From: an uncultured Spirochaetota bacterium
GTDB lineage: Bacteria; Spirochaetota; B62-G9; DRHN01
DNA: 64,000 bases
Assembly: GCA_964433545.1 (NCBI GenBank)
Contig: CAYSRJ010000002.1
Location: forward strand, 37,020 to 101,019
Direction: 5' to 3'
In this document: positions 15,640 through 62,106 of the stretch, piece after piece
How positions within the stretch are numbered: the first letter of the stretch is position 1
How the letters are laid out: each line of letters begins with the position of its first letter
Made by a program: the position numbers and the translations under genes
The notes under the pieces: generated by a model
What the model saw: the letters and a program-made list of their open reading frames with translations, nothing else
Databases searched by the model: none
What the model was told of the DNA's origin: nothing

Positions 15640-16179
15640 TTAGTCGTATTTGATTAACTCGTACGGCAGCTTGGGTTCTTCGCCTTTAAGCAGAGCCGTT
15701 AACGCAGCCCAGAAAGTTTCCGCTCTGGGAGGACAGCCGGGCAGCCAGTAATCGATCTTCACCACCTCGTGGATAGGGTAGACCTTGTCCAGGATAAGCG
15801 GAATATCGGGGTCGTTCGGGATGACGCCGTCGACGACGGACGGGCCTTTGAGATACGCTTCCTCCATGCATTCTCTGAGGGGAATCGTGTTTCTCAGGTG
15901 GGGAACCCCCCCGGTATTGGCGCATTCTCCGACTGAAATGAGAATTTTGCAGTGCTTGCGAAAAGAACGAAGCACCTCGACATTCTCCTGCGTCGAGCAT
16001 CCTCCCTCTATCAGGCCGATATCTACAGGGCCTGTAAACTTCTTTATATCGTCTATGGGTGATTTGTCGAAATCCACAAGCTCGATCAGGTCGAGTATCT
16101 TCTCATCGATGTCGAGCAGAGACATGTGACAGCCAAAGCACCCCGTCATATGAGTTGTCGCTACTTTTGGTTTGGCCAT
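15640..16179 (-). CDS. hoxY: [NiFe]-hydrogenase small subunit (HoxY-like, NuoB/20 kDa-type)
   Basis: 179 aa; Cys ligands typical of the proximal FeS cluster in group-3 small subunits; adjacent to the large subunit. Confidence 0.85.
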   Translation of the reverse strand: MAKPKVATTHMTGCFGCHMSLLDIDEKILDLIELVDFDKSPIDDIKKFTGPVDIGLIEGGCSTQENVEVLRSFRKHCKILISVGECANTGGVPHLRNTIPLRECMEEAYLKGPSVVDGVIPNDPDIPLILDKVYPIHEVVKIDYWLPGCPPRAETFWAALTALLKGEEPKLPYELIKYD

Positions 16180-16205
16180 TTTTCCTTCCTCAAAATAAAG
16201 TTTTT

Positions 16206-16919
16206 TTACGGAGCCTTTTGAATATCCGAACCAATGGGTTGCTTGTCGTACAGGCGGGTGCCGAATGGCTTTGCATAGCCGATACGTTTGATGACAATAC
16301 AGCCGGTCGGGCAGATTGAAGCCGCCTTGTCGGCTGCTGCAAGCTCTGTATCGGATAATCGGTCGCCTTGTGAATTAACCGCGATTCGCTTGTTTATGCC
16401 GCGCCCGACAAACCCGAACACGCTTTTCCCATCGAGGTCACGCGATGCCCGCACACACCTTCCGCAGAGAACACACCGCTCACGGTCTATATACACATCC
16501 GGATGTGTCGCATCGACCTCGACATGTTTGTACTGGTAGGTGTATGTCGGGGTGAGCATGCCGAAACGGTATGCAAGCGCCTGCAGTTCGCAGTCGCCGC
16601 TTTTTTCACAGAACGGACAGAAGTGATTCCCCTCGACAAAAAGCATCTCAATTATATTCCGGCGCTCTTCTGTTAATTCCGGAGTTTCATTTTCGATGAC
16701 CATACCGTCTGCGGCAGGCATTGAACAGGCGTTAGTCGGTTTTCCGTTGACTTTTACCGTGCAGACACGGCAATGTCCGGCCGGAATCAGGTCCTTGTGA
16801 TAGCAGAGGCGTGGGATATAGATTCCCGCTTCATCGGCTGCCTGCATGATCGACTGGCCGGAAGCCGCCTTGATTTCTTTACCGTCAATGATTATTGTTA
16901 TTTTTTGCTCTTTCATCAT
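16206..16919 (-). CDS. hoxU: Hydrogenase diaphorase FeS subunit (HoxU-like; NuoG N-terminal/2Fe-2S + 4Fe-4S ferredoxin)
   Basis: 237 aa; N-terminal 2Fe-2S ferredoxin fold (ITIIIDGKEIKA...CYH...C..C) and multiple CxxCxxC motifs. Confidence 0.8.
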   Translation of the reverse strand: MMKEQKITIIIDGKEIKAASGQSIMQAADEAGIYIPRLCYHKDLIPAGHCRVCTVKVNGKPTNACSMPAADGMVIENETPELTEERRNIIEMLFVEGNHFCPFCEKSGDCELQALAYRFGMLTPTYTYQYKHVEVDATHPDVYIDRERCVLCGRCVRASRDLDGKSVFGFVGRGINKRIAVNSQGDRLSDTELAAADKAASICPTGCIVIKRIGYAKPFGTRLYDKQPIGSDIQKAP

Positions 16920-18739
16920 TCCTCCTCTTCCACCACAGGTTCTCTTCCAGCGATCTGGATTCCCACAGCAAGCGCTTTTTCATAGTCAAACGGCGGAATA
17001 AACTCGTCAGTTTTTGCCTTTGCCGTATACAGCGAGTGAAAATTTCTGAGCGTCGTCAGAATCGGATTTGCCGCAGTTTGGCCGAGGCCGCAGCGGCTCA
17101 TCTTCTCCACCGTGTTTCCGAGGCTCTCGATCTCCTGCAGGTCCAGTTTCGATCCTCTTCCTTCAAGAATTTTCTCGAGCTTCTGCAAAAGGAGTGTCGT
17201 TCCGACCCTGCATGGTGCACACCACCCGCACGATTCTTCAACAAAGAATTCGGTGAACTGCCTGACAATTTCAAGAAGGTCCCGTTCTTTGCTGAAAACG
17301 ATTATTGAGCCGCCGGTTGGAAGGTCTTCAAAACTGATACTTCTTCCAAAATCCTTCGGTGCAACGCATCGTCCGGATGGTCCGCCGACCTGAACCGCCT
17401 GTGTGTCTTTTGCTCCCACAAGATCGAGCAGATCGTCGATTGTAATTCCATATTCGACCTCATACACCCCTGGGTGCGCACAATCGCCTGACACGCTCAG
17501 GCATTTTGTACCTGTTGAATCTTTCGTGCCGATTTTCGAAAACCATTCGGCGCCCTTCTCCATGATACGGGCGGCGCAGCAGAATGTTTCGACATTGTTG
17601 ACGGAACTCGGCTGGTTCATATAGCCACGGGTAACGGGAAACGGCGGTCTGTCGCGCGGCGCGCCCCGTTTTCCTTCGAGCGATTCAATGAGTGCGGATT
17701 CTTCGCCGCACACATAGGCCCCTGCACCGACCTGAATTCGAATATCGAAGTCGAATCCCTGCCTGCCTGCGATATTTTTGCCGAGAAGGCCAAGATGTCT
17801 CCTACGATTAAGAACCTGCTCGAGTGAGCTGAGAAGGTATTTAAATTCTCCTCTCAGGTACATGAATCCCTGCGATGCGCCTATTGCATATCCTGCAATC
17901 GTCATTCCTTCAAAAGCGAGATCTGCAGCTTCGGTGAGGATGACCCTGTCTTTAAAGGTGCCGGGTTCTCCTTCATCCGCATTGCAGATCACATAGTGCT
18001 CTTTTCCCTCCGATTTTCTGCAGAAGTTCCACTTCATGCCCGTCGGAAAACCGGCACCGCCGCGGCCGCGAAGGCGTGATTCGGTAATTGTATTTATCAC
18101 ATCCTCCGGTGACATGTTGAGTGCGGCCCTGATTCCGCTCCCCGGTTCCTGAGGGGAGAAAACAACGGGACCTGTTTTATTGAGATTGTTCTCCACCAGG
18201 GTGGCAGGAAGAACCGTCGCTGCTTTTTCAGGGCTGTACTTCGAACCGCCTTTGAGCTCTTTTACTATGCCCGGCACATCTTCCGGACATATTTTTGTAA
18301 CGGGGATGCCGTTGATGAGAGCAGACGGAGGCTGATCACTCATCCCGATACATGAAGTGTACTCAAGTGAAATCGAACCGTCCGTGCTCGTGCTGCCGAA
18401 GGGAACACCCACTTCTTTTTCGAAGGTATCCGCGACAAGGTCGGCCCCATGCAATCTCTCGACAACAGCATTGCAGAGACGGACCACGCTCTTTCCTGTC
18501 GGTTCACGAGAAAAGAAGGTATAAAAACTCACCATGTCACGAACTTCGACGAGGGGGATACCCAGTGCCCTTGCAATGTGCCCCATGCTCTCCTCGGAAA
18601 TATATCCGAATCGATTTTGTACCTTTTGTGCAATATCCATCAAGTTGCTGCGGTCGCTGCAGCACTCCTCGACAATTTCCTTGATGGCTTTACTTTGATC
18701 ATTTGCCATTACTGTACCTCCGATTGAATAATCAGTCAC
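16916..18739 (-). CDS. hoxF: NAD(P)H-binding diaphorase subunit (HoxF-like; fused NuoE-like thioredoxin-fold 2Fe-2S domain + NuoF FMN/NADH/4Fe-4S domain)
   Basis: 607 aa; NuoF-type GxGxxG/FMN motifs and C-terminal CxxCxxC...C cluster; N-terminal NuoE-like region. Confidence 0.85.
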   Translation of the reverse strand: MTDYSIGGTVMANDQSKAIKEIVEECCSDRSNLMDIAQKVQNRFGYISEESMGHIARALGIPLVEVRDMVSFYTFFSREPTGKSVVRLCNAVVERLHGADLVADTFEKEVGVPFGSTSTDGSISLEYTSCIGMSDQPPSALINGIPVTKICPEDVPGIVKELKGGSKYSPEKAATVLPATLVENNLNKTGPVVFSPQEPGSGIRAALNMSPEDVINTITESRLRGRGGAGFPTGMKWNFCRKSEGKEHYVICNADEGEPGTFKDRVILTEAADLAFEGMTIAGYAIGASQGFMYLRGEFKYLLSSLEQVLNRRRHLGLLGKNIAGRQGFDFDIRIQVGAGAYVCGEESALIESLEGKRGAPRDRPPFPVTRGYMNQPSSVNNVETFCCAARIMEKGAEWFSKIGTKDSTGTKCLSVSGDCAHPGVYEVEYGITIDDLLDLVGAKDTQAVQVGGPSGRCVAPKDFGRSISFEDLPTGGSIIVFSKERDLLEIVRQFTEFFVEESCGWCAPCRVGTTLLLQKLEKILEGRGSKLDLQEIESLGNTVEKMSRCGLGQTAANPILTTLRNFHSLYTAKAKTDEFIPPFDYEKALAVGIQIAGREPVVEEEE

Positions 18740-19364
18740 AAGTGTTGATGAATTTTACAATAATTTTTTAGTGTGATGGTAACGCTGATGCTGCATGTAT
18801 AGTGTGTTTTCGATTATAATCTCACGTTTTTTTATCGTTGCGCCCCCTTTTTTAAAATTGGTATGGATACATTCCTCTAAATTGCCTCGATGTGTGCCAA
18901 ATCAGTTAGACATACAAGATTAAACAGCGATGCATTGAAGCTATCCTTTGAGGATTGTACCGGCTTCTAAGTAACTTAGAACAAGTTGCTTTTTGATACT
19001 CGGCCGCGAAGTGGCTTTCCCCTAGGGGGACTTGCGCCACTTTGTTTTACTTGACCCGGTGCACTGCCGCTGTTAAATTCATTGCCGCAGCAGGAAACAG
19101 CGGGTAATACACAAAAGTTTCGTCGTATTACGGGACTATGTTAAAAAATTAACTATTATTTTAGTGAGACAAATCCTTATATATCTATTCTGCTTTTATG
19201 AAATTGTCAAGGATATTTTCTTTCAGAAGTGAATAAATATCGGGTGAGGTAATAATTATTGCAAGCCCGGGGAAATATTTAAATATTTGAAGAACGCCCT
19301 CAGCATGATAAACATTGTTCAGGTGAATACATAACCTTCATAGAGGCGACCACGGGCACAGATC

Positions 19365-19607
19365 ATGCACGAGCTTTCAATCACGGAAGAGCTGCTTATG
19401 ATAATACACCGGCGTGCTGGAGAGGAGGGCATACAGAAGATTTCGAAAATCAACCTGAAAATCGGAAAGTACTCCGGTGTGTTCACCGATGCGCTTCTCT
19501 TTGCATTCGACGTGCTCTCGAAGGACACAATTTCCGAGGGGGCTCACATCAGTATAGAAGAGACAGGAGGGTCTGAACTCCAGGTTCTTTCGTTTGAGGG
19601 AGACTGA
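19365..19607 (+). CDS. hypA: HypA-like hydrogenase nickel insertion protein, truncated (N-terminal Ni-binding domain only; no Zn-finger)
   Basis: Starts MHELSITEEL (canonical MHE Ni-binding N-terminus); aligns to HypA residues 1-75, then stops; the CxxC...CxxC zinc motifs are absent in all frames downstream. Confidence 0.6.
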   Translation: MHELSITEELLMIIHRRAGEEGIQKISKINLKIGKYSGVFTDALLFAFDVLSKDTISEGAHISIEETGGSELQVLSFEGD

Positions 19608-19720
19608 CGGGTAAAATCCTCGGTTTACAGGAGATTTCAATAGTTATTCGGACGCTTCGCGTCTGAATAATGCCGCTTAACGGCGGAATCATATCAACTA
19701 CATCTTGAAAGGATGAATCC

Positions 19721-20362
19721 ATGAAGGTAAATGTTATGACCGATATTCTGCAGGCGAATGACCTTCTTGCGCAGGATATCAGGAATATACTTCATGACAA
19801 GAAGATCGCATGCTGGAATGTCATGGGATCGCCCGGTGCCGGAAAGACCGCAATGCTTGAACGGCTTGTGCCGATGTTGCCCGCGGAGATAAAAGCGGCC
19901 GTGATAGAGGGTGATCTCGCAACATCGCGTGATGCCGAGAGGATTTCGAAAACCGGCGTGCAGTCCGCGCAAATCAATACGAACGGCGCATGCCATCTGG
20001 ATGCCGCGATGGTGAGATCGGCTCTCGATACGATCGAGCTCGACGATATTTCCCTGCTGTTTATCGAAAATGTCGGAAACCTCGTCTGCCCGTCGGGTTT
20101 CGATCTCGGTGAGAAGGGAAGAATAATTGTCGCCGGTATTACAGAGGGCGATGACAAGCCGGAGAAATATCCCTCGATGTATAAGACTGCGGACCTGGTG
20201 GTGGTCAATAAGATGGATATGCAGGAGAACTCGAATTTCAAGATCGAGAACTTCGAAAAAGGGCTTAAAATGATCAACCCTTCATCTGATATTGTTCCCG
20301 TTTCCTCTGTAACCGGAGAAGGCTTTGACAATCTCCTCGGATGGATACTTGACAGGCAGTAA
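19721..20362 (+). CDS. hypB: Hydrogenase nickel incorporation GTPase HypB
   Basis: 213 aa; P-loop GSPGAGKT; ENVGNLVCP motif; SIMIBI GTPase. Confidence 0.9.
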   Translation: MKVNVMTDILQANDLLAQDIRNILHDKKIACWNVMGSPGAGKTAMLERLVPMLPAEIKAAVIEGDLATSRDAERISKTGVQSAQINTNGACHLDAAMVRSALDTIELDDISLLFIENVGNLVCPSGFDLGEKGRIIVAGITEGDDKPEKYPSMYKTADLVVVNKMDMQENSNFKIENFEKGLKMINPSSDIVPVSSVTGEGFDNLLGWILDRQ

Positions 20363-22899: not shown

Positions 22900-23981
22900 A
22901 TGAACCGTACAGGGACAGGGAGCTGGTAAAGACGGTTACACGGAAAATACACGATGTCTATCCGGGCGACGCGGTCAAGATCATGGAAGTCTGCGGCACA
23001 CACACAATGGCGATCGCCAAATACGGCCTCAGAAGCCTTCTCCCGGACGGACTTTCGCTCATCTCCGGCCCTGGATGCCCGGTTTGTGTCACACCTTCAT
23101 CTATCATAAACGCGGTGCTCGAACTGGCAGTGCTTCCGAATGTCACTGTTGCGACATTCGGCGATATGATTCGTGTTCCGGGCTCTGATAAAAATCTCGA
23201 ACAGTTAAAAGCCGAAGGTGCCGATGTTCGCATTGTCTATTCGGCGTATGAACTGATCGACATGGCATCATCCGAAAAGGACAGGGAGTTCGTTTTCGTC
23301 AGTGTCGGATTCGAGACTACTACCCCTGGGATTGCGCTTGCAATTCTGGAGGCGGAAAAACGGGGTATAAAAAACCTGTTTTTCATAGCTGCAAACCGTC
23401 TGGTGATACCGGCGCTTGAGGCACTCTGCATCAGTGAGAACACGCTGATAGACGGTTTTTTATGCCCCGGCCATGTCAGCGTTATTATCGGCTGGGACGC
23501 GTACCGGCCGATTGCAGACCGGTTTCATGTGCCGTGCGTTGTCGGCGGTTTCGAGCCGGTTGATATATTGACGGCTGTCTACGAAATCGTCCGGCGGGTG
23601 TCAAAGGGAGAGGCTGGCGTCGCCAATACCTATAAAAGAGCGGTTTCCGAGAAAGGAAATGCGCGCGCCCTTGAAGTGATGGACAGGGTGTTCGAGCCGG
23701 CGGATGCCGCCTGGCGCGGTATAGGTACAATCCCAAAAAGCGGCCTAAAGCTTCGTGATGAGTTTGCCCACCTCGAGGCGCTGTCTCATTTTAGGGTTCA
23801 TCTCATCGAAAGCCCCGACCCGAAGGGGTGCCGATGCGGTGATGTTCTCAAGGGGGTGATAATTCCGCCTGAGTGTGCGTTGTTCGGAAAGAGATGCACC
23901 CCCGAGAATCCTGTCGGGCCGTGCATGGTTTCTTCTGAAGGATCCTGTGCAGCCTACTACAGGTACCCAAAAAGCGAGTAA
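22896..23981 (+). CDS. hypD: Hydrogenase maturation factor HypD
   Basis: 361 aa; CGxH, GPGCPVC and C-terminal CxxC...CxxC HypD motifs. Confidence 0.9.
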   Translation: MNEPYRDRELVKTVTRKIHDVYPGDAVKIMEVCGTHTMAIAKYGLRSLLPDGLSLISGPGCPVCVTPSSIINAVLELAVLPNVTVATFGDMIRVPGSDKNLEQLKAEGADVRIVYSAYELIDMASSEKDREFVFVSVGFETTTPGIALAILEAEKRGIKNLFFIAANRLVIPALEALCISENTLIDGFLCPGHVSVIIGWDAYRPIADRFHVPCVVGGFEPVDILTAVYEIVRRVSKGEAGVANTYKRAVSEKGNARALEVMDRVFEPADAAWRGIGTIPKSGLKLRDEFAHLEALSHFRVHLIESPDPKGCRCGDVLKGVIIPPECALFGKRCTPENPVGPCMVSSEGSCAAYYRYPKSE

Positions 23982-24072
23982 GTACCCAAAAAGTGGGTAA
24001 CTACCCGATTCCTCATTTTGCAGCTGTGATGTATAATTCAGTTAGAAATCTTCGAGATGATGGAGGTGGGGC

Positions 24073-25116
24073 ATGAGCATTGAGAGAGTCCTTCTTATCC
24101 ATGGAGGCGGCGGACGCATGGCGAGAAGGCTCATCGAGAGCATCGTTTCAACATTCGACAATACGGCTTTGAGCCGGATGGAGGATGCATCGCCGATTTA
24201 CATTCCTGAGCATGAAAAAAAGTCAGCGGGCGACACTGCAGAACAGCAGCCGAGAATTGTCATGACGACCGACAGCTTTGTCGTGACCCCACTCTTTTTC
24301 CCCGGCGGAGACATCGGTAAGCTTTCTGTATGCGGAACAGTAAACGACCTCGCTACTGCCGGCGCGGTTCCCGCCGCCCTGTCTGTAGGGCTGATAATCG
24401 AGGAGGGCTTTCCTGTTCGGGACCTCGAGCGAGTGCTCACATCGATGAAGGAAACCGCAGACAGTGTACCCGTCCCACTCATAACGGGAGATACGAAGGT
24501 TGTAGAGAAGGGCAGGGGTGACGGTGTTTACATCTCGACCGCTGGAGTCGGGGTTGTGCGGCCCGGTATCGAACTTTCGCCGGCGCGGATTGAGGAGGGA
24601 GACACGGTACTTATCAACGGTTCCATAGGCAACCATGAGGCCTCTATACTGAGTGCGAGAAACGAACTTTCACTGGGAGCGAAAATAGAATCAGATTGCG
24701 CTCCTCTAGGCGATCTCATGCAGACAGTTCTCGAAGCCGCGCCGGAAGCCAAATGTGCGCGTGACCCGACCAGGGGAGGGGTTACAGCAGTTCTCTGTGA
24801 GCTTGCTGAAAGCGCCGGATGCACTATAACACTTGATGAAGAGGCAATTCCGGTCAATGAAGATGTGCAGGGCCTCTGCGACATACTCGGTCTCGATCCA
24901 TTGCAGATGGCGAATGAGGGAAAGATGATCGTGATTGTGCCCGGTAGAATGGCGCAGATAGTTCTCGAAGCGATGAAAACCCTCGACGTTGGAAGGAACA
25001 GTGTGAAAATCGGAGAGGTCCAAAAAGGACCAGGACGTCTCGTTATGAAAACACCATACGGGACGAGCAGGATCATCACCATGCCGGTAGGGAACCAGCT
25101 CCCCCGCATATGTTGA
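24073..25116 (+). CDS. hypE: Hydrogenase maturation factor HypE (carbamoyl dehydratase)
   Basis: 347 aa; PurM-like fold; C-terminal ...PRIC motif. Confidence 0.9.
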   Translation: MSIERVLLIHGGGGRMARRLIESIVSTFDNTALSRMEDASPIYIPEHEKKSAGDTAEQQPRIVMTTDSFVVTPLFFPGGDIGKLSVCGTVNDLATAGAVPAALSVGLIIEEGFPVRDLERVLTSMKETADSVPVPLITGDTKVVEKGRGDGVYISTAGVGVVRPGIELSPARIEEGDTVLINGSIGNHEASILSARNELSLGAKIESDCAPLGDLMQTVLEAAPEAKCARDPTRGGVTAVLCELAESAGCTITLDEEAIPVNEDVQGLCDILGLDPLQMANEGKMIVIVPGRMAQIVLEAMKTLDVGRNSVKIGEVQKGPGRLVMKTPYGTSRIITMPVGNQLPRIC

Positions 25117-25171
25117 TTGCAGGGGGCAGCCGCTTGAAAACCAATTATACTAGGAAAAAAGCGTCGTAATT

Positions 25172-25325
25172 CCTTGACAGGATACATCCCCCTGGGATAC
25201 ATCCCCCCGGGACTGAGTATCAGACAGTAACTTGCTCGAAGTTACTTAGAAGCGGTGTTCGTCCCTGTGGGACTGAGTATCGACGAGTAACTTTATAATT
25301 GAAGTTAATTAAAAAAGCCCGAAGG
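25172..25325 (+). repeat. Repeat family 2 copy (TTGACAGG module, 2 x 15-bp units, two GGGACTGAGTATC...AGTAACTT hairpin sub-units) in the hypE/eno convergent spacer
   Basis: ccttgacaggatacatccccctgggatacatccccccgggactgagtatcagacagtaacttgctcgaagttacttagaagcgg...gggactgagtatcgacgagtaacttt. Confidence 0.85.
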
Positions 25326-25396: not shown

Positions 25397-26749
<1,353 letters not shown>

Positions 26750-31304: not shown

Positions 31305-31817
31305 TCAGTAGCCCTTTTCTTTCAGCTCATTGAAGTGTTTTTTTGCAAGCTCATTGTCCTTGTCGACGGCCAGGAGATGCATATATGCCTTTTTTGCTTC
31401 AGTAAAATGCTGTGTCTTTTCATAGGTAACGGCAAGATTTGTGATGTAGAGCTTGTCTTCCGGTTTAAGAAGATACGCCTTCTCGAAGTAGGGAAGAGCT
31501 TTTTCATACATACCGAGATTTCCATACACAAGCCCCAGGGCTTCAAGAGCCTGATCATGATTCGGGCTGTACTTCAGGGTGAGCTCGAATTCCTCCACTG
31601 CCTTATCGTACTGTTGGGATTTTACGTAGCGTTTTCCGTCCTCATAGTGTTTTGTTGATTTGACATTGGCGCATCCCGCGAGCTGAAGCAAGAGGAGACC
31701 CGATAAAACTACTGTAAAACCAATGAATTTTCCTGCACGTTGTCGTTTCCGTATGTTCTGAGAGTTTGTACAGGCTGTCATGTTCAGGTCCCTTTCAAGA
31801 ATATGTTTTTTCCGCAT
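31305..31817 (-). CDS. TPR-repeat protein with N-terminal signal/membrane anchor
   Basis: 170 aa; hydrophobic N-terminus; 3-4 TPR units. Confidence 0.6.
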   Translation of the reverse strand: MRKKHILERDLNMTACTNSQNIRKRQRAGKFIGFTVVLSGLLLLQLAGCANVKSTKHYEDGKRYVKSQQYDKAVEEFELTLKYSPNHDQALEALGLVYGNLGMYEKALPYFEKAYLLKPEDKLYITNLAVTYEKTQHFTEAKKAYMHLLAVDKDNELAKKHFNELKEKGY

Positions 31818-31835: not shown

Positions 31836-31912
31836 TAAGATACATCTTGCAAAGATACATCTTGAAAAGATACATCTTGAAAAGATACATCTTGCAAAGA
31901 TACAATGTATGG
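31836..31912. repeat. Tandem 15-bp repeat (AAGATACATCTTGMA) x about 4.5, directly upstream of the TPR gene start
   Basis: Direct reading: aagatacatcttgcaaagatacatcttgaaaagatacatcttgaaaagatacatcttgcaaagataca; each unit holds the inverted repeat AAGAT-AC-ATCTT. Confidence 0.85.
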
Positions 31913-33261: not shown

Positions 33262-33372
33262 AATAGGTTCAAGCCAATCGGGCTCGCGAATAAGTGTTTT
33301 TCCGTTGCAACTGCATAGCGAGCCCATTCTGACGGCCGAAGGCCGGAAGAACACTTGCCTAATGGTTTTTAC
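33262..33372 (+). repeat. Dispersed intergenic repeat family 1 (MITE/REP-like, about 110 bp), copy A
   Basis: About 85% identical to the copies at about 44209-44355 (reverse) and 54353-54485; internal 8-bp stem GGGCTCGC/GCGAGCCC and a GGCC-GAA-GGCC hairpin. Confidence 0.8.
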
Positions 33373-33447
33373 CTTAATTTATCAATTACTTTAAAAGCCA
33401 TGGAAAATTAAAGGACCATTGTTTTTTTAAAAATCTGGTACAAAATA

Positions 33448-35055
33448 TCAGTCTTTTAATAGATAAAACCATAATTTATACACAGCGGTCAGGAGAATAC
33501 CGAGTGCAATATAGTACCATACCCACAGAGGAAGACCCGCTGCCAGTACCGGAGTCTTCCCCCAGTTCCAGAAATCGTTTCCCAGAATAAAAATTAGGAC
33601 GAAAATCGGTATAAAGAAAAGTGATCCCCTTTTTATCCGAAATACAATATTTGTATTTTCGTTACTGACGCTCGTCAGGGCGCTTACGAATATAAACACA
33701 ACGCCGGTTGCGCTCAGTATGGGAATGACCGGGTGCAAGCCGGATATCTGTATTTTTTCGAAATAATAGGCTACCACCATGAATTCGCCGGTGAATATGC
33801 TTGCGATTGCGCCGAACTTGTTTGCTTTTTTCCAGTACAGGCCGCCTAAAACACAGGGACCGAGTACACTCAGACCGTTGAAGGTCGTCCTGCTGATAAA
33901 TGCAAGAATAGTATTCGGCGGTTTCAAGGCAATTAATAAGCTGACTGCGCCGATCACAATAATGGTGGTTTTTTCCTTTAATATTTCATTCTTCTCTACT
34001 TTGAGAAAATCGATGGTGATCATCGAAGTAAGAGTCAAGAGCTGGGAGTCCATTGTCGACATGAGCGCTGCGATGGCTCCGGTCAACAGGAGGGTGCTCA
34101 GGAAGGTGCTCGTATAGTTTCCAAGCAATAGCGGGAAAATGGTATCCGATCTGCCTGCCTCTAAAGCGGGAAATGCCGATCTTCCCATAACACCTATCGA
34201 TACGGTTAGGAAAAAAAGAAACGTGGTTATGATAGGGTAGAGGATCACCGTCGTGTGGAGGGTCTCGCGGTCCTTTGCAACCATGAAACGCTGAAAGAGC
34301 TGTGGAAACATTGGGTCCGCAAAGAACCAGAGCACCATGTAACCAATCCAGATTCCAAAGCCCATCGAACCGTTCATTCCCGGTCTTGAAAAGAGTGAAG
34401 GTGCATTGGAAAAAATAGTTTCATGCACGTGAATAAACCCTCCGCTTTTCCGGGCAATAATTATAAATGCGGTGAGTGTGAATACAATCATCAACACTCC
34501 CTGGAAAAAGTCCGTCCACACAATTGATCGGAGTCCGCCGAGCACCACATAGGTTACCACAAATCCGGTAATAAGAAGTGCTCCAGCGAGGTAGGGAATA
34601 CCGATAAGCGAATTGAGCGATTTCCCGCTCGCGATGGCCTGCAGGGAAATGTAGGGCAGTGTGAAAATAATCATTATCATGGAGAAGAGTTTTTTCAGGA
34701 AGGGTGAGTTGTACCGGTCCTGGATAAAATCCGAGGGAATTATGTAGTTCCTCTTTTTTGAAAGGATAAGGATTTTTTCTCCGATAACGATGAATGAAAG
34801 CGCCATGAATGCCGTTCCGAAGCCCATAACCGGATAGAATGAGTAACCGATTCTGTAGCCGGCGCCGGAAAAGCCGAATATCGTAAAGGCACTGAAGTTA
34901 GTCGCAGCCATTGTAAAGAAAAGGAGCATGCGGTTCAAATTACGGCCTGCAAGAAAGAATTCGACAGAACTGATCCGTGCGCTTTTTCGAAACAGCACAC
35001 CGATACCGAGCGTTGCGAGAAGATAAACCAGTACAATGGAAAGTTGTGTAATCAT
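33448..35055 (-). CDS. Sodium:solute symporter (SSS) family transporter
   Basis: 535 aa; 13-14 TM helices; SSS family sequence features. Confidence 0.8.
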   Translation of the reverse strand: MITQLSIVLVYLLATLGIGVLFRKSARISSVEFFLAGRNLNRMLLFFTMAATNFSAFTIFGFSGAGYRIGYSFYPVMGFGTAFMALSFIVIGEKILILSKKRNYIIPSDFIQDRYNSPFLKKLFSMIMIIFTLPYISLQAIASGKSLNSLIGIPYLAGALLITGFVVTYVVLGGLRSIVWTDFFQGVLMIVFTLTAFIIIARKSGGFIHVHETIFSNAPSLFSRPGMNGSMGFGIWIGYMVLWFFADPMFPQLFQRFMVAKDRETLHTTVILYPIITTFLFFLTVSIGVMGRSAFPALEAGRSDTIFPLLLGNYTSTFLSTLLLTGAIAALMSTMDSQLLTLTSMITIDFLKVEKNEILKEKTTIIVIGAVSLLIALKPPNTILAFISRTTFNGLSVLGPCVLGGLYWKKANKFGAIASIFTGEFMVVAYYFEKIQISGLHPVIPILSATGVVFIFVSALTSVSNENTNIVFRIKRGSLFFIPIFVLIFILGNDFWNWGKTPVLAAGLPLWVWYYIALGILLTAVYKLWFYLLKD

Positions 35056-35167
35056 TGTTCCCTCCTCGAAATTTGGTATATACCGGTCAAAGACAACAAA
35101 TTACTGAATTTGTTGAAACGTCAGGGTCACCCGGATTTCGGAACAGCGAGCTCATGATTACGAGTAA

Positions 35168-35205
35168 TTAAAAAAAGCCATCCGGACCGTGAGGGTCTGG
35201 ATGGC
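35168..35205 (-). terminator. Strong terminator-like hairpin (13-bp stem) with a U7 tail on the minus strand, inside the SSS transporter leader region
   Basis: AGCCATCCGGACC-GTGAG-GGTCTGGATGGCT; the minus strand reads the hairpin followed by TTTTTTT; no minus-strand CDS upstream. Confidence 0.5.
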
Positions 35206-35387
35206 TTTCACCTTGGCATAACCCGTTATTGTATTGTATACGTATAAGCGTATAACGTCAATTATTTTTATACTAATAGCGTATTGGAATGGAGTTGTTT
35301 ATTCATGATGCTCAGCGTAATCTGCTGATTGTAAGTACATGTTAAAAGCGACGTGAATCCCCCTGGGAATGTCGCTTCGCGGCCGAG

Positions 35388-35590
35388 CCTTGACAGGATA
35401 CATCCCCCCGGGATACATCCCCCCGGGATACATCCTCCCGGGAAACATCCCCCCGGGATACATCCTCCGGGGATACATCCTCCGGGGACTGAGTATCAAA
35501 CAGTAACTTGTGCGAAGTTACTTGGAAGCGGCCTACCTCCTGAGGGACCGAATATCATGAAGTAACTTCGCGAGAAGTTACTTAGAAGTA
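35388..35590 (+). repeat. Dispersed composite repeat family 2: TTGACAGG module + 6 x 15-bp tandem GGGATACATCCYCCS units + two AGTAACTT...AAGTTACT hairpin sub-units
   Basis: Direct reading; related copies at about 25172-25325, 48581-48700 (reverse), 62101-62213, and degenerate ones at about 18962-19045 and 50170-50265. Confidence 0.85.
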
Positions 35591-35673
35591 CGCACAGCCG
35601 GCAATTTAATAATTGACTGAATTTCAATTCCGGTATATTTTGATAAAACATAAATGCAGAGGGAGGTATATTA

Positions 35674-44105: not shown

Positions 44106-44208
44106 CTCCCATACTCACCCCAAGTAGCCCATGTAAAAAAGATCAGCAGAAGGTGCTTTTTTCCTTACAATCGATGGTCCGACAATCCGCAATTATGGTT
44201 TTATCCAT

Positions 44209-45823: not shown

Positions 45824-48514
45824 CTAAAACAGCGCCTTTTCTATTTTCAATATTTTATACTGCTTTTTTCTAGTGCTCCTGCCAAGTTCGATTACATCTC
45901 CAACAGACTTGTTCAAGAGGTTTTCTCCGATTGGTGATGTATAGGATATAATGTTCTTTGCAGGTTCCGATTCCCACGGACCGAGAACGGTAAATTTTTC
46001 TTTTTTTTCGTCCTCAATGCAGTTCAAACTAATCACCGTCCCGACTGAGATAACATTTGTCTTGATATCTTCACCTTTGAGAATCTTCGCCCTGTTCAGA
46101 CTTTCCCTGAGGTTTTTAACCTGCTGTTTCAGGAATTCCTGCTTTTCAAGTGCGAACTTGTATTCCGCATTCTCCCGAAGATCGCCTTTTTCCATGGCGA
46201 CACCGATCTCTTTGCTGTTTGAGGGGATTGCCACGTCCATCAGGTATTTCAATTCGTTCTGTTTCAATTCGAACGATCGCTGTGTGACGAGGAGCTGTTT
46301 CGAGTTGTCTACACTCTCTACTTCATCATCGAATACAATACTCGGGTAGGTTGTTTTGATAGCGAAACGGGTTTTAATGATATATTCATCCTTTAACTCT
46401 TCGATATTCAGAATGGTCGGCATCAGCCGTCGGACTCTGGCTTCATCAGCAGTTTTGATATACTCGACAAGAAGATCGTCTTTGAACAGGATGTCGACAA
46501 TGGTGTTGAATATTTTCCTGTTGTATACCACATTCCGTTCATTAATGAGTTCCCTGCTCGCAATCTCGAGTAAATGGGTAAGGCCGATCATGACCTTATC
46601 GAAATTTATCTTGAAGTCATATTCATCCTGTTTTCTGATGAGATTCTTGCTGATCCAGATAAAAAGTTTGCTGTACTCCCTGTAATGGGAGGTGATATTG
46701 GATATAATTTCATCCACGCGGGCAGTTTCTCCGGATGCAATTAGCTCATCGATTATGAATTTCATGGGGTGTATATAAAAACTCTTTACAAACAACTCTG
46801 GCCATGCGTTGGATTCCTTTTTGATATTCAGTAAGAAGATTTTTCTAAGATCGTTATCCGGTATAATCGAGAGATATGTGTGAATGTCCTTGAGGTTTTC
46901 GAGTATCGCACTGAAATCGAAAGAAAAATCAAACGGGAGGTAGCTGTACGATTTCTTCAGGGTTTTCAGGAGCAGAAAGCTCTTTAGTGTATTTTCGTTC
47001 ATGTTCCCGGATGATGTAATAAATCCGGTAAAGTAGTGGAGCATTTCTTCGAAATATTCGGAGTCGATATCGCCGTTGGAAATGTAATCATTGAAGAGCT
47101 CGAATCTTTTATTGAAATTCTTCTCGGTTTTAAATTTATTATATATATCTTCGTTATATGAAATCGGCTTTTTTCTTATGAAGTATATATCGTTGTTTTC
47201 AGGTGAAGTACCAAAATAAGGATTCTTTTTAAGTATTGTTTTTGCCCTGTTCCACCATTTCGACCATTCTTTTTTTGTGAGTACACCTTTGAGAAGCTCT
47301 TCTTTGAAATCTTTAACCGATGCTGTATTATTTTTGCTCTTTATTACTATCCTCAATCCTTCCTCAACATTGTTCAAAATCAATTCCCGTAATTTATCAA
47401 GGTCCTTTGCCTTGAGAAGCCATATATGATCATCAGGGAGAATCTGAAGGCAGCTGAGAGCCATCTGCAGCGTCATACTGTGGTTTTTCTTGTCCGTAAA
47501 GTCAATGATTAGAGATTCATCTTTTATATCGGTGCACCTGCCAATACCCCAGGTTCGGTGAAATACGTAGCTGCCGACATCGAAGATTATGTGTTTTTCA
47601 AAGGTTTCGATTGCTTTGATACTGTCAGTTGCCGGGTCTTTTAAGCCCGACATTTCTATATATTCATCAAGGTAGGAATGTGTGCTGTATTTATTTGTAT
47701 AACAATCAATGAGTTCCTCACGTGATTCTCTGTCCCGTGCGTTGTATCTCAGAATTTTCTTCAGAATGTCGATGGCGGTATCGAACTCGCCCTTGTCTTT
47801 GAAGTAGGGGAGTATAAAAGACAGAAGAAATGCAGATTTGTCTGTTCCTATTGTATCTGCAATTCTCTTTTCCGTGCTCAGGAAAAAATTGAGGTCTTCC
47901 GGGATCAGGTCCACGAGTTTCAGCCATATCTCTTCGACGGGATTATTAATCCCTTTTTTCAGATATCTGAGTAGCGCTTTTTTATAGTAATCGACCGCTT
48001 CTTCGATAGCGCCTTTTTTCTCTTTAATTGTTGCAAGCTTCCGTGTTAATTCCGCTTCGTCGTAGTCGATTTTGACAAGGCGTTCCCATACTCTTATTAG
48101 CTGGTCTTCCCTGTTGTCGTTTGAAAGACATTGTGAGAGTGCCTCGAGGGCATACTTGTTTTCTCCGTATTTAAGAGTCTCTTTTGCGAGGAACTCAACA
48201 ATGTTAAAACGTTTATTGTCGATAAAAAGGTTTATGAGTTTCTGAATATGCCCTTCATCGAGAGCCTGTTCTTCGAAGTTGATCTTTCCCATTATGTAGA
48301 GCGCAATTATACTGTTTGGTGTGTGCGTCAGGTGTTCCTCGGTAAGACTGCGCACTGCAGGATGCTTTCCTGTTTTTTTTGCTTCTGTCAGAAGGGTGTC
48401 TAAATCGGTAAAATTTTTAATTGTGTAATTGTTGAGAGTCGCCCGGGTCCATTTTTCCTCGTTTAAAAGATCGGACAACTGTTGAACTGTCTCGACTGCC
48501 ATATGTATCTCCAT
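45824..48514 (-). CDS. greA: Transcription elongation factor GreA with an N-terminal extension of about 730 aa (spirochaete-type long GreA)
   Basis: The C-terminal 160 aa align to full GreA (GDLRENAEYKFALEKQ coiled-coil + FKBP-like C-terminal domain); the N-terminal region has no recognisable domain. Confidence 0.75.
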   Translation of the reverse strand: MEIHMAVETVQQLSDLLNEEKWTRATLNNYTIKNFTDLDTLLTEAKKTGKHPAVRSLTEEHLTHTPNSIIALYIMGKINFEEQALDEGHIQKLINLFIDNKRFNIVEFLAKETLKYGENKYALEALSQCLSNDNREDQLIRVWERLVKIDYDEAELTRKLATIKEKKGAIEEAVDYYKKALLRYLKKGINNPVEEIWLKLVDLIPEDLNFFLSTEKRIADTIGTDKSAFLLSFILPYFKDKGEFDTAIDILKKILRYNARDRESREELIDCYTNKYSTHSYLDEYIEMSGLKDPATDSIKAIETFEKHIIFDVGSYVFHRTWGIGRCTDIKDESLIIDFTDKKNHSMTLQMALSCLQILPDDHIWLLKAKDLDKLRELILNNVEEGLRIVIKSKNNTASVKDFKEELLKGVLTKKEWSKWWNRAKTILKKNPYFGTSPENNDIYFIRKKPISYNEDIYNKFKTEKNFNKRFELFNDYISNGDIDSEYFEEMLHYFTGFITSSGNMNENTLKSFLLLKTLKKSYSYLPFDFSFDFSAILENLKDIHTYLSIIPDNDLRKIFLLNIKKESNAWPELFVKSFYIHPMKFIIDELIASGETARVDEIISNITSHYREYSKLFIWISKNLIRKQDEYDFKINFDKVMIGLTHLLEIASRELINERNVVYNRKIFNTIVDILFKDDLLVEYIKTADEARVRRLMPTILNIEELKDEYIIKTRFAIKTTYPSIVFDDEVESVDNSKQLLVTQRSFELKQNELKYLMDVAIPSNSKEIGVAMEKGDLRENAEYKFALEKQEFLKQQVKNLRESLNRAKILKGEDIKTNVISVGTVISLNCIEDEKKEKFTVLGPWESEPAKNIISYTSPIGENLLNKSVGDVIELGRSTRKKQYKILKIEKALF

Positions 48515-48580: not shown

Positions 48581-48800
48581 CTTCTAAGTCACTTCTCGCG
48601 AAGTTACTTTATGATATTCGGTCCTTCGGGGATACATCCTGTCAAGGACGTAGACCACTTCCAAGTAACCTCGATTAAGTTACGTTTTGATACCTAGTCC
48701 TGCCAAGGACTAGTCGTGACAGAGATCGGCTGCGAAGTCGCCACTTTTCCTTGGCTCGTTAAGCATTGGGAAATTAAGGTAAAAACCATTAGGCAAGTGA
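48581..48800 (-). repeat. Repeat family 2 copy (reverse orientation) followed by the CTAGTCC-TGCCAA-GGACTAG hairpin and a family-1 tail fragment (AAAAACCATTAGGCAAGTG)
   Basis: Reverse complement of 48590-48655 matches 35545-35590 and 62139-62213 nearly base for base. Confidence 0.8.
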
Positions 48801-48943
48801 TAAATTGTATCTTTTAGAATTAACAAGCTAACGTACCTATTTTTTCAATTATTCTGTGTGCAAGTTTTTTTCCGGGATACTAATAAAGTAAAAAAAGTGT
48901 TACGGAAAATCAATCATTATTTGAAATACTGCTTGCATGTATA

Positions 48944-49000
48944 CCAAGGGCACAGGTACCAAGGGCACAGGTACCAAGGGCACAGGTACCAAGGGCACAG
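48944..49000. repeat. Tandem 15-bp repeat (AAGGGCACAGGTACC) x 4 immediately 3' of the TPR gene
   Basis: Direct reading: accaagggcacaggtaccaagggcacaggtaccaagggcacaggtaccaagggcacag. Confidence 0.85.
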
Positions 49001-49017: not shown

Positions 49018-49992
49018 TTATTCCAGGTAACGGGAGAAGATTTCTGTATCAATCTCATTGATCCTCTGCAGAGATTGCTCTATCTCTTTTCTGCTCCCAC
49101 CGATGATCTTCAGTGTGTCTATCAGCCAGAAATAATGGTTAAGCAGTTTTGGCTCGATAAAGGAACGCTTTTTACGGTTTGTTTCATACTCCTTTTCGAG
49201 CACCTCTATTTCCAGACGCAGCTTTTCAAGCTCCCCTTTTTTTGGCTCGCGTTTGACATTGAATGCCCTGTTTATTTCCGCAATCACGGGCAGCCAGTAA
49301 ATAGATACTTCCGGGTCTGGCGCCTTTTCTATTGTCTTTTTATAGAGCATGTGGATGAACGGTGACTCGATGCTATCAAGCTCAATCTGGCCGGGATCGA
49401 TAAAAAAGGCTTCTCTGAAAAGAACCTTGGCCTTTGATGTTTCATCTATGCTGAAGTAACAGTCTCCGAGCTTGGACATCAGGTCAGGGTCGTTTATGTT
49501 GAAGCTTCTCGCATACTCGTATATGTCGATAGCACGCTCGTAATTGCCTAATTTTTTAAAACAGTCCCCTATCTGGATGAGGATGCCGGTATCCGGTGCT
49601 GCTCCCTCATTATATGCATCGGTAAATGATTCGATAATGTCCCCGAAAATATACTTTTGAATAGCCGCGGTGGATCTCCCATGCCGGAGATTATTTTTTA
49701 CCATATATTTTTCAAAATCCCTCCATTCTTTCAAGAGCACCCGCGCCTTGTCGTATGGACTGTTGAATCTTTTGGCCTTTTTCCTGCTGATCCAGAACCT
49801 GGTTGCCTTGACTCCGTCGACAACTCCCGGATAATTGCTGTTTTCACGAATGATATTTTCGAAAAGGGCAATTGCTTCGCTGAAATTGCCATCTTCCAGC
49901 AGTTTGTGAGCCCTGTTCTGCTTGATATACAGAGGATCATCCTCAAATGTGAGCTGACCGTCGTTTTCCATTGACATGCATTCCGTTAGCAA
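49018..49992 (-). CDS. TPR-repeat protein (cytoplasmic)
   Basis: 324 aa; multiple TPR units; no signal peptide. Confidence 0.6.
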   Translation of the reverse strand: MLTECMSMENDGQLTFEDDPLYIKQNRAHKLLEDGNFSEAIALFENIIRENSNYPGVVDGVKATRFWISRKKAKRFNSPYDKARVLLKEWRDFEKYMVKNNLRHGRSTAAIQKYIFGDIIESFTDAYNEGAAPDTGILIQIGDCFKKLGNYERAIDIYEYARSFNINDPDLMSKLGDCYFSIDETSKAKVLFREAFFIDPGQIELDSIESPFIHMLYKKTIEKAPDPEVSIYWLPVIAEINRAFNVKREPKKGELEKLRLEIEVLEKEYETNRKKRSFIEPKLLNHYFWLIDTLKIIGGSRKEIEQSLQRINEIDTEIFSRYLE

Positions 49993-54352: not shown

Positions 54353-54612
54353 GGCAAGTAAACTTTCAATTGTAGAAGACCAAACCGATCGGGCTCGTTG
54401 ATAAATGTTTTTCGTTACAACTACACAGGCGAACCCATTCTGACGGTAGAAGGTCGGAAGAACGCTTGCCTAAGGGTTTTTAGCGAAATTTGTCAATGCT
54501 TAATAGGCCGTGGACAGGAAAAGAGTTATTGTCTATTAAAAAAACCGGTATTAAGGATACCGGGGAATACTGGTACAAAACACCAGCCTTCTCCGGCATG
54601 GAATGTCGGTAT
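54353..54612 (+). repeat. Dispersed intergenic repeat family 1, copy C, with an 80-bp insertion carrying an A7-hairpin (CCGGTAT-TAAG-GATACCGG) before the tail module
   Basis: GGCAAGTAAACTTTCAAT...GGGCTCG...CCCATTCTGACGG...CTTGCC; the core aligns to copies A and B; the tail aligns to copy B. Confidence 0.8.
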
Positions 54613-54617
54613 TCTAA

Positions 54618-55424
54618 GTGGATAGAATCATAAAAATAGAAAATATGGATAGAAAAGATAAAGAGAATTCAAAGCGTAAAAAAAACACTGAAGCCAGTAG
54701 AGGATACGATAAAAAGGGCGATGAACAGGAGATTTCGATAGACAAACTCGATGCGACGAATAATCAGGAGATTTCGGCTGAAAAGAAGAAAAACGGGCAA
54801 AATACAACCCAAGAATGTTCACCCGCAAAGACGCTTTTGCAAACCCTCTGTGAAGATGAACTGCAGGAACTTCTCAGCGTCAGAGAGAAACTTGACGAAC
54901 AGTCGAAAATTCTGGAAGAGAAGAAGAGCCTCCTTTCCGAATATGAGGACCTGCTTAAGCGCAAACAGGCGGATTTTGAAAATTATCGTAAGAGAGTCCA
55001 GCGGGAATTCGATGATTTTAAAAAATATGCAACCTCTGATCTTGTTCTCGACATCCTGAACGTTATAGACGATTTTGAACGGGCTATCGATTCTGCACGG
55101 TCGTCAAAGGATTTCGACACGCTTCTCGAAGGCATCCTGCTTGTGGAAAAACATCTCCGGAACCTTCTCGAGAGCAAGTACGATATCGAGCCTATTGAAA
55201 CTGTCGGCAGAGAATTTGACCCAATGGTCCATGATGCAATCATGATGGAAGAATCAGAGCAATACAGTGAAGATACAGTGGTAGAGGATTTCCAGAAGGG
55301 ATATAAACTCCATGATAGAGTTTTGAGACCTGCCAAGGTTAAGGTTGCGAAAGCTGTATCTTCGAACAGTGCGTCAGACGAAAAAACCGATGAAGTAGCG
55401 GAATCCTCCGGGAAAGGAGATTAA
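54618..55424 (+). CDS. grpE: Nucleotide exchange factor GrpE with a Lys/Glu-rich N-terminal extension
   Basis: 268 aa; C-terminal GrpE four-helix bundle/beta domain features; precedes dnaK. Confidence 0.85.
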
Positions 55425-61317: not shown

Positions 61318-62106
61318 CTATCCCTCCTCCTCTCGCAGGCCTTTCAACCATGTGCCGTTGATTCTGATAAAAGTATGCTGCGGCTCGGGGAATTCCCGGC
61401 CCTCAAAAAATACATAAACATAGGCTTTATTCTGGTTGGCGAAAACCACCCGTGATATTTTCAAAGTCTTTATCTGCCCTTTTCTCCTCGTTTCAACAAG
61501 AAGGTTGAAAAAAGAATGGAGGTCTGCTGCATCCCACCCGTCATTGTGCAGGTTTTCGGGATTGCCGTACTTCTTTCTGTAATCCGGGGTTAACATGCCC
61601 TTCCACCCTTCAAAGTCATCCTTTTCATACATTTCCTCGAGCTTGTTGATAATCTCGAGTATGTTCTCTGCTTCATGTTTTGCTTCTCCAGCGTCAATTG
61701 CAGTAGAGACATTATCACTTTCGGGCAGTACGACTTCTATTTTCGAATCCTGTTCGGGGACTGAGATGGTTAATTCTTCCGTGTTTTCCATGTTGGTATT
61801 ATCGGCGGCAACTTCAGTCCCGGCGGGTTCTTTCTGCTTTATTTCAACCTGAGTTTGTTCCAAAGGCTCCCGGGTGGATTTATGTTCTGAAGGCTTCTCT
61901 TCAACACCTGACGGCCCCTGTTGCTGGTAATCAAACTGCACAGATTTTTTTCCTGAACAGCCGGTTATAAAAAGTACCGCACATGCGGTGAGCAGAAGGC
62001 ACCCTCGTATATTCTGAAATTTATTCATCATTATATAAGGAATTTTAACAACTTCTCCTTTTTTTTCAATATCTTTCTCCTCCTGCGAATAAGGGAGGTG
62101 TATCAA
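61318..62106 (-). CDS. Hypothetical lipoprotein
   Basis: 262 aa; lipobox FITGC after a hydrophobic h-region; acidic low-complexity linker. Confidence 0.5.
   Translation of the reverse strand: MIHLPYSQEEKDIEKKGEVVKIPYIMMNKFQNIRGCLLLTACAVLFITGCSGKKSVQFDYQQQGPSGVEEKPSEHKSTREPLEQTQVEIKQKEPAGTEVAADNTNMENTEELTISVPEQDSKIEVVLPESDNVSTAIDAGEAKHEAENILEIINKLEEMYEKDDFEGWKGMLTPDYRKKYGNPENLHNDGWDAADLHSFFNLLVETRRKGQIKTLKISRVVFANQNKAYVYVFFEGREFPEPQHTFIRINGTWLKGLREEEG

Follow-up and report, generated by a model that had tools for sequence, protein, structure and literature searches.

Four tandem arrays with a period of 15 bp lie at gene boundaries in a 64,000-nucleotide stretch (hereafter the window) of contig CAYSRJ010000002.1 from an uncultured Spirochaetota bacterium, beginning at positions 25180, 31837, 35396 and 48942. 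We consider it probable that these arrays are variable-number tandem repeats (VNTRs) that are driven by slippage and belong to an intergenic mosaic repeat family of the REP/BIME/BOX/NIME/MIRU kind, rather than sites for a regulator. The embedding of arrays in a larger element, the dispersal of that element, its intergenic location in both orientations, copy-number polymorphism and a common hairpin geometry are all observed.

Mini-hairpin arrays and the mosaic element that carries them

Arrays were called with Tandem Repeats Finder (TRF) on the window, and their units were also read directly from the sequence. TRF recovered the three arrays that a first-pass annotation of this DNA had described (35396, 31837 and 48942) in their places, together with a fourth, at 25180–25212, that was absent from it (Table 1). 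In 100 windows randomised by a first-order Markov model, the top TRF score was 71 and the mean best score was 43.6, and period-15 rows appeared at a rate of 0.15 per window (maximum 2), against four in the real window; the 15-bp arrays are far beyond chance expectation. The gene contexts given in the annotation are correct by Pfam. The 35396 array lies between the divergent genes of an SSF symporter (−) and a B12-binding protein (+), the 31837 array lies 20–87 nt upstream of the start of a TPR gene (31305..31817, −), and the 48942 array begins 17 nt past the stop of another TPR gene (49018..49992, −).

All three unit types have the layout arm(5)-2-arm'(5)-3, namely GGGAT-AC-ATCCC-CCC, AAGAT-AC-ATCTT-GMA and, for the 48942 array read on the minus strand as CTGTGCCCTTGGTAC, GGTAC-CT-GTGCC-CTT with one G.T wobble. 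By this geometry an array is a row of 5-bp hairpins with 3-nt loops and dinucleotide joints; the 35396 array, 6.2 units of GGGATACATCC(C/T)CC(C/G), consists of ATCCC-NNN-GGGAT mini-hairpins in series linked by AC. The core GATACATC was seen as described in the 35396 and 31837 arrays, within GGGAT-AC-ATCCC and AAGAT-AC-ATCTT, and the AC-centred palindromes reported for the arrays are present in these two, while the 48942 array has none. The description of the arrays as unrelated does not hold: two of them are one module, and one hairpin geometry is common to all. Between the 35396 and 31837 arrays the outer arm positions are altered on both sides (GG..CC to AA..TT), and since these changes compensate each other, it is pairing that is kept, not a recognition sequence. 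The compensating arms could come from selection on the hairpin or from template-switch ('quasipalindrome') mutation.

The 35396 and 25180 arrays have common flanks, as established from four dispersed-repeat families and the direct reading of copies. The element that contains them consists, in order, of 5' hairpin module(s) (for example, GCGAC..GTCGC followed by TTCGCGGCCGA), an ATCC-TTGACA-GGAT segment or array, and tandem units of ~60 nt. The ~60-nt unit reads GGGACnGArTATCAnnnAGTAACTT-loop-AAGTTACTTAGAAG and ends in AGTAACTT-loop-AAGTTACTTAGAAG; family-wide, one to four such units stand head to tail in an element, and the window copies have one or two. Five element copies occur in the 64 kb, one of them a single unit. 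The 5' module of the 35396 copy recurs in L025 and L039 (L-numbers denote loci or contigs retrieved from the genome collection and metagenomes). The 25159–25310 copy is located between the convergent 3' ends of a hypE-like gene (24073..25116, +) and an enolase gene (25397..26686, −); the 48714–48581 (−) copy sits inside a copy of a second non-coding family, the leader family described below, upstream of a GreA/GRAD-domain gene; and the 62100–62212 copy is anti-oriented between two minus-strand genes. In the latter two copies a lone GGATGTATCC stands in the array's place and pairs across the TTGACA loop with the upstream ACATCC. The segment at this position is amplified twofold in the 25180 copy and sixfold in the 35396 copy, and hairpin 1 of the first 60-nt unit doubles as the final hairpin of the GGGAT arrays.

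The same module was found by TRF, as 15- or 16-nt GGGAT..ATCCC arrays, in six fetched loci (L011, L014, L015, L025, L032, L036); the 16-nt period is seen in a sister metagenome-assembled genome (MAG) and corresponds to a 4-nt loop (ATCCC-TGGC-GGGAT). Scans of metagenome and viral contigs for three GATACATC cores at 15-nt phase gave ~140 loci, most of which are unrelated arrays within long open reading frames (ORFs) with non-complementary flanks, so the phased core was rejected as a general signature. A coherent subset comprises 10 further GGGATACATCC loci on 11 contigs (L104, L120/L201, L125, L147, L153, L171, L174, L176, L185, L194), with three to nine units, from the same Joint Genome Institute (JGI) sample series as the window's population. 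At all 10, the array follows ...CGCGGCCGATCC-loop- and precedes GGGACnGrGTATCA..hairpin..TTAGAAG, an identical position in the element. According to the first-pass annotation, arrays found only inside copies of its repeat family 2 would be a sub-module of that element rather than independent sites; this is what was found for the main array type, with both window GGGATACATCC arrays and 10 of the 10 further loci embedded in the mosaic element. An orphan 15-nt array of AGGATACATCCCAGG (L137, 123–210; L178, 9642–9745; one locus in two samples of the same series) has no adjoining 60-nt unit and adds a further polymorphic VNTR of the mini-hairpin type.

The 31837 and 48942 arrays are likewise not attached to a 60-nt unit. 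The 31837 unit has the identical 8-nt centre and the same geometry as the GGGAT module, with the compensating arm changes given above, and from these sequence features it is a probable AT-rich derivative of that module; by rough estimate, two independent 5-2-5 palindromes would match in this way about 1 time in 1000. For the 48942 unit, an exact 14-mer occurs once in L024, within a 15-nt insertion in the terminal hairpin of a leader-family copy, and both L047, just ahead (upstream) of a three-unit element, and L029 carry degenerate relatives in tandem (GTACCAGGGGCAC, ATACCACGGGCAC). Because its relatives recur beside elements or inside leader repeats, we place the 48942 array in the same class of mini-hairpin VNTR, with other arms. 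The possibility that CTGTGCCCTTGGTAC is an operator of the GreA/GRAD gene was rejected, as the gene that follows this 14-mer in L024 is non-homologous; the 'MDKTIY' common to GreA/GRAD and L024 is a DNA motif of another repeat family.

When the genome collection was searched with the hairpin pattern, 47 loci matched, ~35 of them from one MAG labelled Spirochaetota (CAZGJW01) and the others mostly from MAGs labelled Desulfobacteraceae/Desulfobacterales; three matches, in a Chromatiaceae MAG and an alphaproteobacterial MAG, are without the remainder of the element. A profile search with nhmmer over the window and these loci gave 84 units in 59 elements, of which 56 lie between long ORFs and 3 within a putative long ORF (crude ORF call). 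Both orientations occur, with 18 co-oriented and 10 anti-oriented elements between co-directional genes. Some elements are inside operons, as in L047, where three units lie between etfB and etfA and an inverted further copy lies upstream of etfB; head-to-tail tandems of 60-nt period reach 2.9 copies in L047 and 2.3 in L024. The 3' end of the element is sharp at TTAGAAG and its 5' end is a variable mosaic. Versions in the Desulfobacteraceae (Tobar/CAZVFQ MAGs) are gene-less mosaics that all have the sharp end ...ACTTAGAAG; their common sequence does not exceed ~290 nt, and the reading of these versions as containing a parent mobile element was rejected. Apart from the repeats, there is no synteny between the window and the MAG loci.

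Two side observations concern these loci. The MAG 'uncultured Spirochaetota bacterium binchicken_co89_639' (CAZGJW01; L001–L047) carries dozens of copies of repeat families that, outside this MAG, were met in the window and in Desulfobacteraceae/Desulfobacterales MAGs alone. This could mean a wrong taxonomic label for the MAG or a passage of the families between phyla. At anti-oriented copies in L008, L009 and L006, the neighbouring ORF seems to stop ~6 nt within the element border, and the reverse complement of ..TTAGAAG has a TAA that is a possible stop for it, so that elements appear to abut or slightly overlap gene ends.

Table 1. Arrays, element copies and other repeats in the window and, where indicated, in other loci.
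Feature	Position	Strand	Description
Array 35396	35396–35488	+	period 15 bp, 6.2 copies, 92% match, TRF score 144, unit GGATACATCCCCCCG
Array 31837	31837–31904 (feature span 31837–31911)	+	period 15 bp, 4.5 copies, TRF score 122, unit AAGATACATCTTGAA / AAGATACATCTTGMA
Array 48942	48942–49000	−	period 15 bp, 3.9 copies, 100% match, TRF score 118, unit TACCAAGGGCACAGG
Array 25180	25180–25212	+	period 15 bp, 2.2 copies, unit same as 35396 array (TRF)
5' hairpin modules, 35396 copy	35344–35395	+	GCGAC..GTCGC long hairpin, then TTCGCGGCCGAGCC, then TTGACA loop variant at 35390–35395
Two tandem ~60-nt units	35470–35588	+	GGGACnGArTATCA..AGTAACTT-loop-AAGTTACTTrGAAG, immediately 3' of 35396 array
5' module remnant and TTGACA loop (25174–25179)	25159–25179	+	second element copy
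Two tandem ~60-nt units	25193–25310	+	enolase/hypE locus
Element copy	48581–48714	−	two ~60-nt units around ACGTCC-TTGACA-GGATGT hairpin, one non-amplified GGATGTATCC
Element copy	62100–62212	+	degenerate unit, ACATCC-TTGACA-GGATGT hairpin, full unit
Single ~60-nt unit	18964–19018	−	divergent nuoF-like/hypA intergenic region
Leader family, window	33290–33480 (+), 54400–54640 (+), 44360–44140 (−), 48860–48500 (−)		
Leader family, other loci	L011 ~3095–3250, L014 (−), L024 5500–5670, L029 ~3010–3180, L040 ~6840–7010, L041 ~5100–5260		
Further tandem repeat	184–230		17 bp x2.8 (CCTGAGGTTATCAACGA)
Further tandem repeat	23963–24006		19 bp x2.3 (GTACCCAAAAAGCGAGTAA), at hypD/hypE junction

Unit number in near-clonal populations

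Loci were recovered from many independent sediment metagenome assemblies by exact-protein look-up of the flanking genes; the TPR gene 49018..49992 gave no match in this look-up, and the GreA-domain gene served for the 48942 locus. Comparison of copy number across contigs, which the first-pass annotation had proposed as a check, revealed variation at three of the four window arrays. The 35396 array has six units in the window, L050 and L051 and five in L048, L049 and L052. The 25180 array has two units in the window, L064, L067 and L068, six in L063, six with an extra 31-nt hairpin module in L065, and seven with this module in L066 and L069; its alleles differ in the inner order of C/T loop variants, and three more contigs terminate within it. 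The extra module (GGATAAATCCTCTTGGGACCGATCCCTGGCA) lies in the enolase/hypE spacer between the TTGACA loop and the array, and its presence in one haplotype indicates that whole modules, as well as 15-nt units, are gained or lost in the population. The 48942 array has three units in L073, four in the window and five in L074–L076, and the 31837 array is identical in 10 of 10 contigs. Differences of one unit were also seen at L120/L201 (three vs. four) and at the orphan locus (six in L137 vs. seven in L178). The 60-nt units were without a copy-number difference in the few contigs compared. Flanks of 3.2–3.9 kb are 99.7–100% identical between contigs, so change in the arrays far outpaces point substitution.

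Hypermutable tracts that vary within a population, such as those at 25180, 35396 and 48942, are a feature of contingency loci, and the arrays could be read as selected hypermutable spacers that tune the transcription or translation of adjacent genes (the corrinoid protein and SSF symporter, the TPR proteins and the GreA-domain protein). Besides the near-clonal polymorphism at three of the four window arrays and two other loci, such a reading can draw on the location of the 35396 array between predicted divergent promoters and on the 31837 array, which adjoins the Shine-Dalgarno region of its TPR gene. The placement of the arrays as a whole, however, argues against it. At the most variable array, 25180, the genes on both sides converge with their 3' ends, so promoter geometry is irrelevant there, and the only invariant array is the one closest to a start codon (31837). 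Array position is fixed in the element and not relative to genes, the elements occur in both orientations, no array lies within an ORF or between −35 and −10 boxes, and a 15-bp step is not an integral helical turn. We regard phase variation of this kind as unlikely; of the phase-variable spacers suggested in the first-pass annotation, the variable copy number stood, while a consistent position relative to promoters was not found and the array nearest a start codon did not vary.

The hexamer that precedes the arrays leads to the same question of promoters. Ahead of GGGATACATCC arrays in metagenome copies it is TTGACA, TTGATA, CTGGCA or CTGGCG, and in other element copies TTTACA or TTGGCA; since it varies in this way and forms a hairpin loop, TTGACA was rejected as a conserved sigma-70 −35 box. 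Within the SSF/corrinoid spacer, the best sigma-70-like sites are outside the element, at 35261..35233 (−) and 35613..35641 (+). Two other readings of the units, examined by eye, were also set aside: for sigma-54, the GG/GC spacing is unlike −24/−12, and for CsrA (GGA in loops), the GGA is in stems and is missing from the 31837 and 48942 arrays.

Operator and transcript readings

In the first-pass annotation the arrays were viewed as possible landing pads for an iteron-like or dimeric regulator, in which a DNA-binding or nucleoid-associated protein would occupy a 5-AC-5 palindrome every 1.5 turns. The 12-bp palindromes are indeed perfect and evenly phased, and GATACATC is enriched in the window (15 observed vs. 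2.1 expected), but this excess is contributed almost wholly by the arrays themselves. The arms change in a compensating manner, those of the 48942 array are unrelated, the period is 16 nt in the sister genome, and the number of units is unconstrained (two to nine). The 25180 array is found on the terminator side of convergent genes, TTGACA is one variant of a hairpin loop, and the 15-nt-phased GATACATC arrays met elsewhere are unrelated coding repeats. Iterons and phased operators combine a conserved site, an origin or promoter and a cognate binding-protein gene, a combination that is not present here, and neither a DnaA-box cluster nor a rep gene was found. The operator reading is thus very improbable in our assessment, and nothing was found in favour of the nucleoid-protein sites that had also been proposed. 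As a separate observation, the cumulative GC skew has its minimum near 18 kb (~16000–20000), coinciding with a flip in gene orientation (minus-strand genes to 18739, a plus-strand hyp operon from 19365). An origin or iteron context at this minimum was considered and dropped, because the 18740–19364 spacer has no DnaA-box cluster and hence gives no evidence for an origin there.

At the level of RNA, the elements may be transcribed stem-loop cassettes for mRNA stabilisation, for processing or attenuation, or for an RNA-binding protein, with the arrays adding hairpins. Copies occur within operons and at positions in the 5' and 3' untranslated regions, the fold of 35335–35600 is strong (z = −5.1), G.T pairs exceed A.C mismatches on the element strand by 8:3, and co-oriented elements are in excess (18:10). 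On the other hand, the same count means that 10 of 28 elements between co-directional genes are antisense, and the region 35056–35673, the sole intergenic region scanned, has no terminator-like T tracts. Hairpin 2 of the 60-nt unit is 99% paired with no variation and so lacks covariation support, whereas hairpin 1, with 83% pairing and two-sided changes at two pairs, has weak support; the pair counts are weak evidence in either direction, as expected for a young family. In Rfam 15 the window had no hits at the gathering threshold, and L011, L041 and L047 gave only chance-level matches at E ≤ 1; with neither the unit nor the whole element matched, a known RNA family was rejected. We find a function of this type improbable as the explanation of the arrays, though transcribed copies might still act as stabilising or processing hairpins.

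The arms of hairpin 2 are invariant and its loop ranges between 4 and 7 nt, a pattern that is compatible with an intrastrand hairpin and hard to square with a duplex site for a dimer. Across genera, in MAGs from several studies, hairpin 2 and the single-stranded stretches beside it are conserved in primary sequence. It is conceivable, though quite doubtful, that hairpin 2 (AGTAACTT-loop-AAGTTACTTAGAAG) is the target of a dedicated factor, either a Y1/RAYT-like DNA enzyme or an RNA-binding protein, and that the VNTR is a selected 'rheostat'. Such a rheostat would diversify the expression or mRNA stability of housekeeping neighbours in an almost clonal sediment population, and contingency would then operate in a free-living anaerobe instead of a pathogen.

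Model and related repeat families

We return to the reading of the arrays as VNTRs of a mosaic repeat family. According to this model, the arrays would be hypermutable tandem amplifications of a 15-nt mini-hairpin module, arm(5)-2 nt-arm'(5)-3 nt. Those of the GGGATACATCC type (35396 and 25180) constitute one variable internal module of a family that is gene-less and rich in hairpins. Its parts, in order, are 5' hairpin modules, the repeat [ATCC(C)-loop-(G)GGAT + AC]n and one to four ~60-nt units ending in TTAGAAG; in each unit hairpin 1 varies and hairpin 2 (AGTAACTT-loop-AAGTTACT) is conserved. The 31837 and 48942 arrays would be VNTRs of the same mini-hairpin kind with different arm sequences. 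Slipped-strand mispairing or template switching, acting during replication on direct repeats that are self-complementary, is the probable route by which units come and go. The family is dispersed between the genes of this organism and of related genomes of the Desulfobacteraceae type. Effects on neighbouring genes, such as RNA hairpins in transcribed copies or altered spacing of divergent promoters, would be incidental, as with REP, BIME and BOX.

Several points weigh against this model. The primary-sequence conservation of hairpin 2 hints at a candidate trans-acting factor. The 31837 array is both unattached to a 60-nt unit and invariant, which may reflect constraint or function, and the 35396 array lies between divergent promoters, where changes in spacing could matter. 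Slippage is inferred from the result that it would be expected to leave, and was not itself seen. Repeats can be mis-sized in assemblies of short reads, a concern that is mitigated by the length of the arrays (30–135 bp, under typical read length) and by the recurrence of alleles in independent samples.

The family works like the REP/BIME, BOX, NIME and MIRU families, yet it is filed under none of them. REP and BIME, of enterobacteria and pseudomonads, are short, non-coding extragenic hairpin repeats of high copy number that form mosaics and occur in both orientations; BOX of Streptococcus pneumoniae (boxA-boxB(n)-boxC) is modular and non-autonomous, has a variable internal tandem module and can be transcribed with its neighbours; NIME are neisserial intergenic mosaics of 50–150-bp units with short inverted repeats (PMC3184786). 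With REP and BIME, the present family shares short (about 20–65 nt) non-coding extragenic palindromes in many copies, mosaics of few modules, and sites between convergent genes and in operons. It differs from them in having no sequence similarity, no GTAG-type 5' tetranucleotide beside hairpin 2, and head-to-tail direct units, which is not the BIME architecture of REPs in alternating inverted orientation. BIMEs are not known to contain a counterpart of the internal 15-nt mini-hairpin VNTR. REPs are associated with a RAYT gene (Y1 transposase) that inverted REPs flank; in the ~0.4 Mb of genomes inspected no RAYT gene was found, and the genes bracketed by inverted element pairs (rubrerythrin, ABC transporter components, etfB) turned out to be housekeeping genes with no transposase among them.

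The likeness to BOX lies in an intergenic, non-autonomous modular element with one internal module in variable tandem number, here two to nine units at a fixed position ahead of the sharp 3' end; with a mosaic 5' end that varies, a single 'boxA' is not definable. The two are unrelated in sequence and differ in host phylum, and fixed terminal A and C modules are not defined here; the variable module is 15 nt, compared with about 45 nt for boxB. In NIME, the RS units are flanked by dRS3, ATTCCC-N8-GGGAAT, and the intergenic mosaics studied here are similarly punctuated by dRS3-like inverted repeats (ATCCC-N3-GGGAT), but they have no link to a pilin locus or phage integration, and their units and organisation differ. 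The MIRU-VNTRs of mycobacteria are intergenic tandem repeats, often within operons, whose unit number varies between strains; their units are 40–100 bp and not made of mini-hairpins. Here, too, unit number differs between near-identical strains, with a variable unit of 15 nt that is built as a mini-hairpin. Plasmid iterons and phased operators are similar in their evenly spaced direct repeats of 15–22 bp and different in that the arrays here have no initiator gene or origin, co-varying arms and an unconstrained unit number, and lie inside a dispersed repeat. Neither terminal inverted repeats spanning the element, whose two ends differ, nor consistent border direct duplications or target-site duplications were found, including where an element interrupts a leader-family copy; without terminal inverted repeats the family does not qualify as a MITE. 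A phage or viral origin was rejected, as the hairpin unit had 0 matches in the viral contigs scanned.

The leader family is a second non-coding family of ~170 nt, found immediately upstream of ORF starts and, in the copies examined, on the strand of the downstream ORF. It reads TAGGCAAGTG..CACTTGCCTAATGGTTTTTACC..TTCTGGTAC-AAAAA-ACCAGAA..ATGGATAAAACCAT, and RNAalifold on five copies gives a nested structure: P1 has 10 bp, with a single compensatory change from C-G to U-A, and P2 is long-range and takes in AUGGAUAAAACCAU. The terminal loop carries foreign insertions of 15 nt in L024 and 21 nt in L029. No Rfam entry matched the family, which could be a cis-regulatory leader or a promoter/operator cassette. 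The GreA/GRAD ORF (45824..48514, −) is unusually long at 896 aa, with HTH_GRAD and GRAD_C domains and C-terminal GreA/GreB N- and C-domains, and its 'MDKTIY' N-terminus (48514–48486, −) is encoded by the leader motif ATGGATAAAACCAT. In L024 (5652–5696) this motif begins a mini-ORF of 14 codons that precedes an unrelated gene, and at 44208–44143 (−) it begins a Cys-rich mini-ORF of 21 codons (MDKTIIADCRTIDCKEKSTFC); the start of the 896-aa gene may be misannotated, or the mini-ORFs may be leader peptides.

Searches of Rfam and of the literature found no description of the mosaic family. Its 60-nt unit and 15/16-nt mini-hairpin VNTR explain why contigs break when metagenomes of this lineage are assembled, and searches for motifs or small RNAs should mask the family. 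The evenly phased palindromic arrays at gene boundaries, for which a regulatory reading is tempting, are in our interpretation probably dispersed hairpin repeats shaped by slippage, and the VNTRs are natural strain-typing markers for an uncultured sulfate-reducer-like population. If they do modulate expression, contingency-locus biology would extend to environmental anaerobes.

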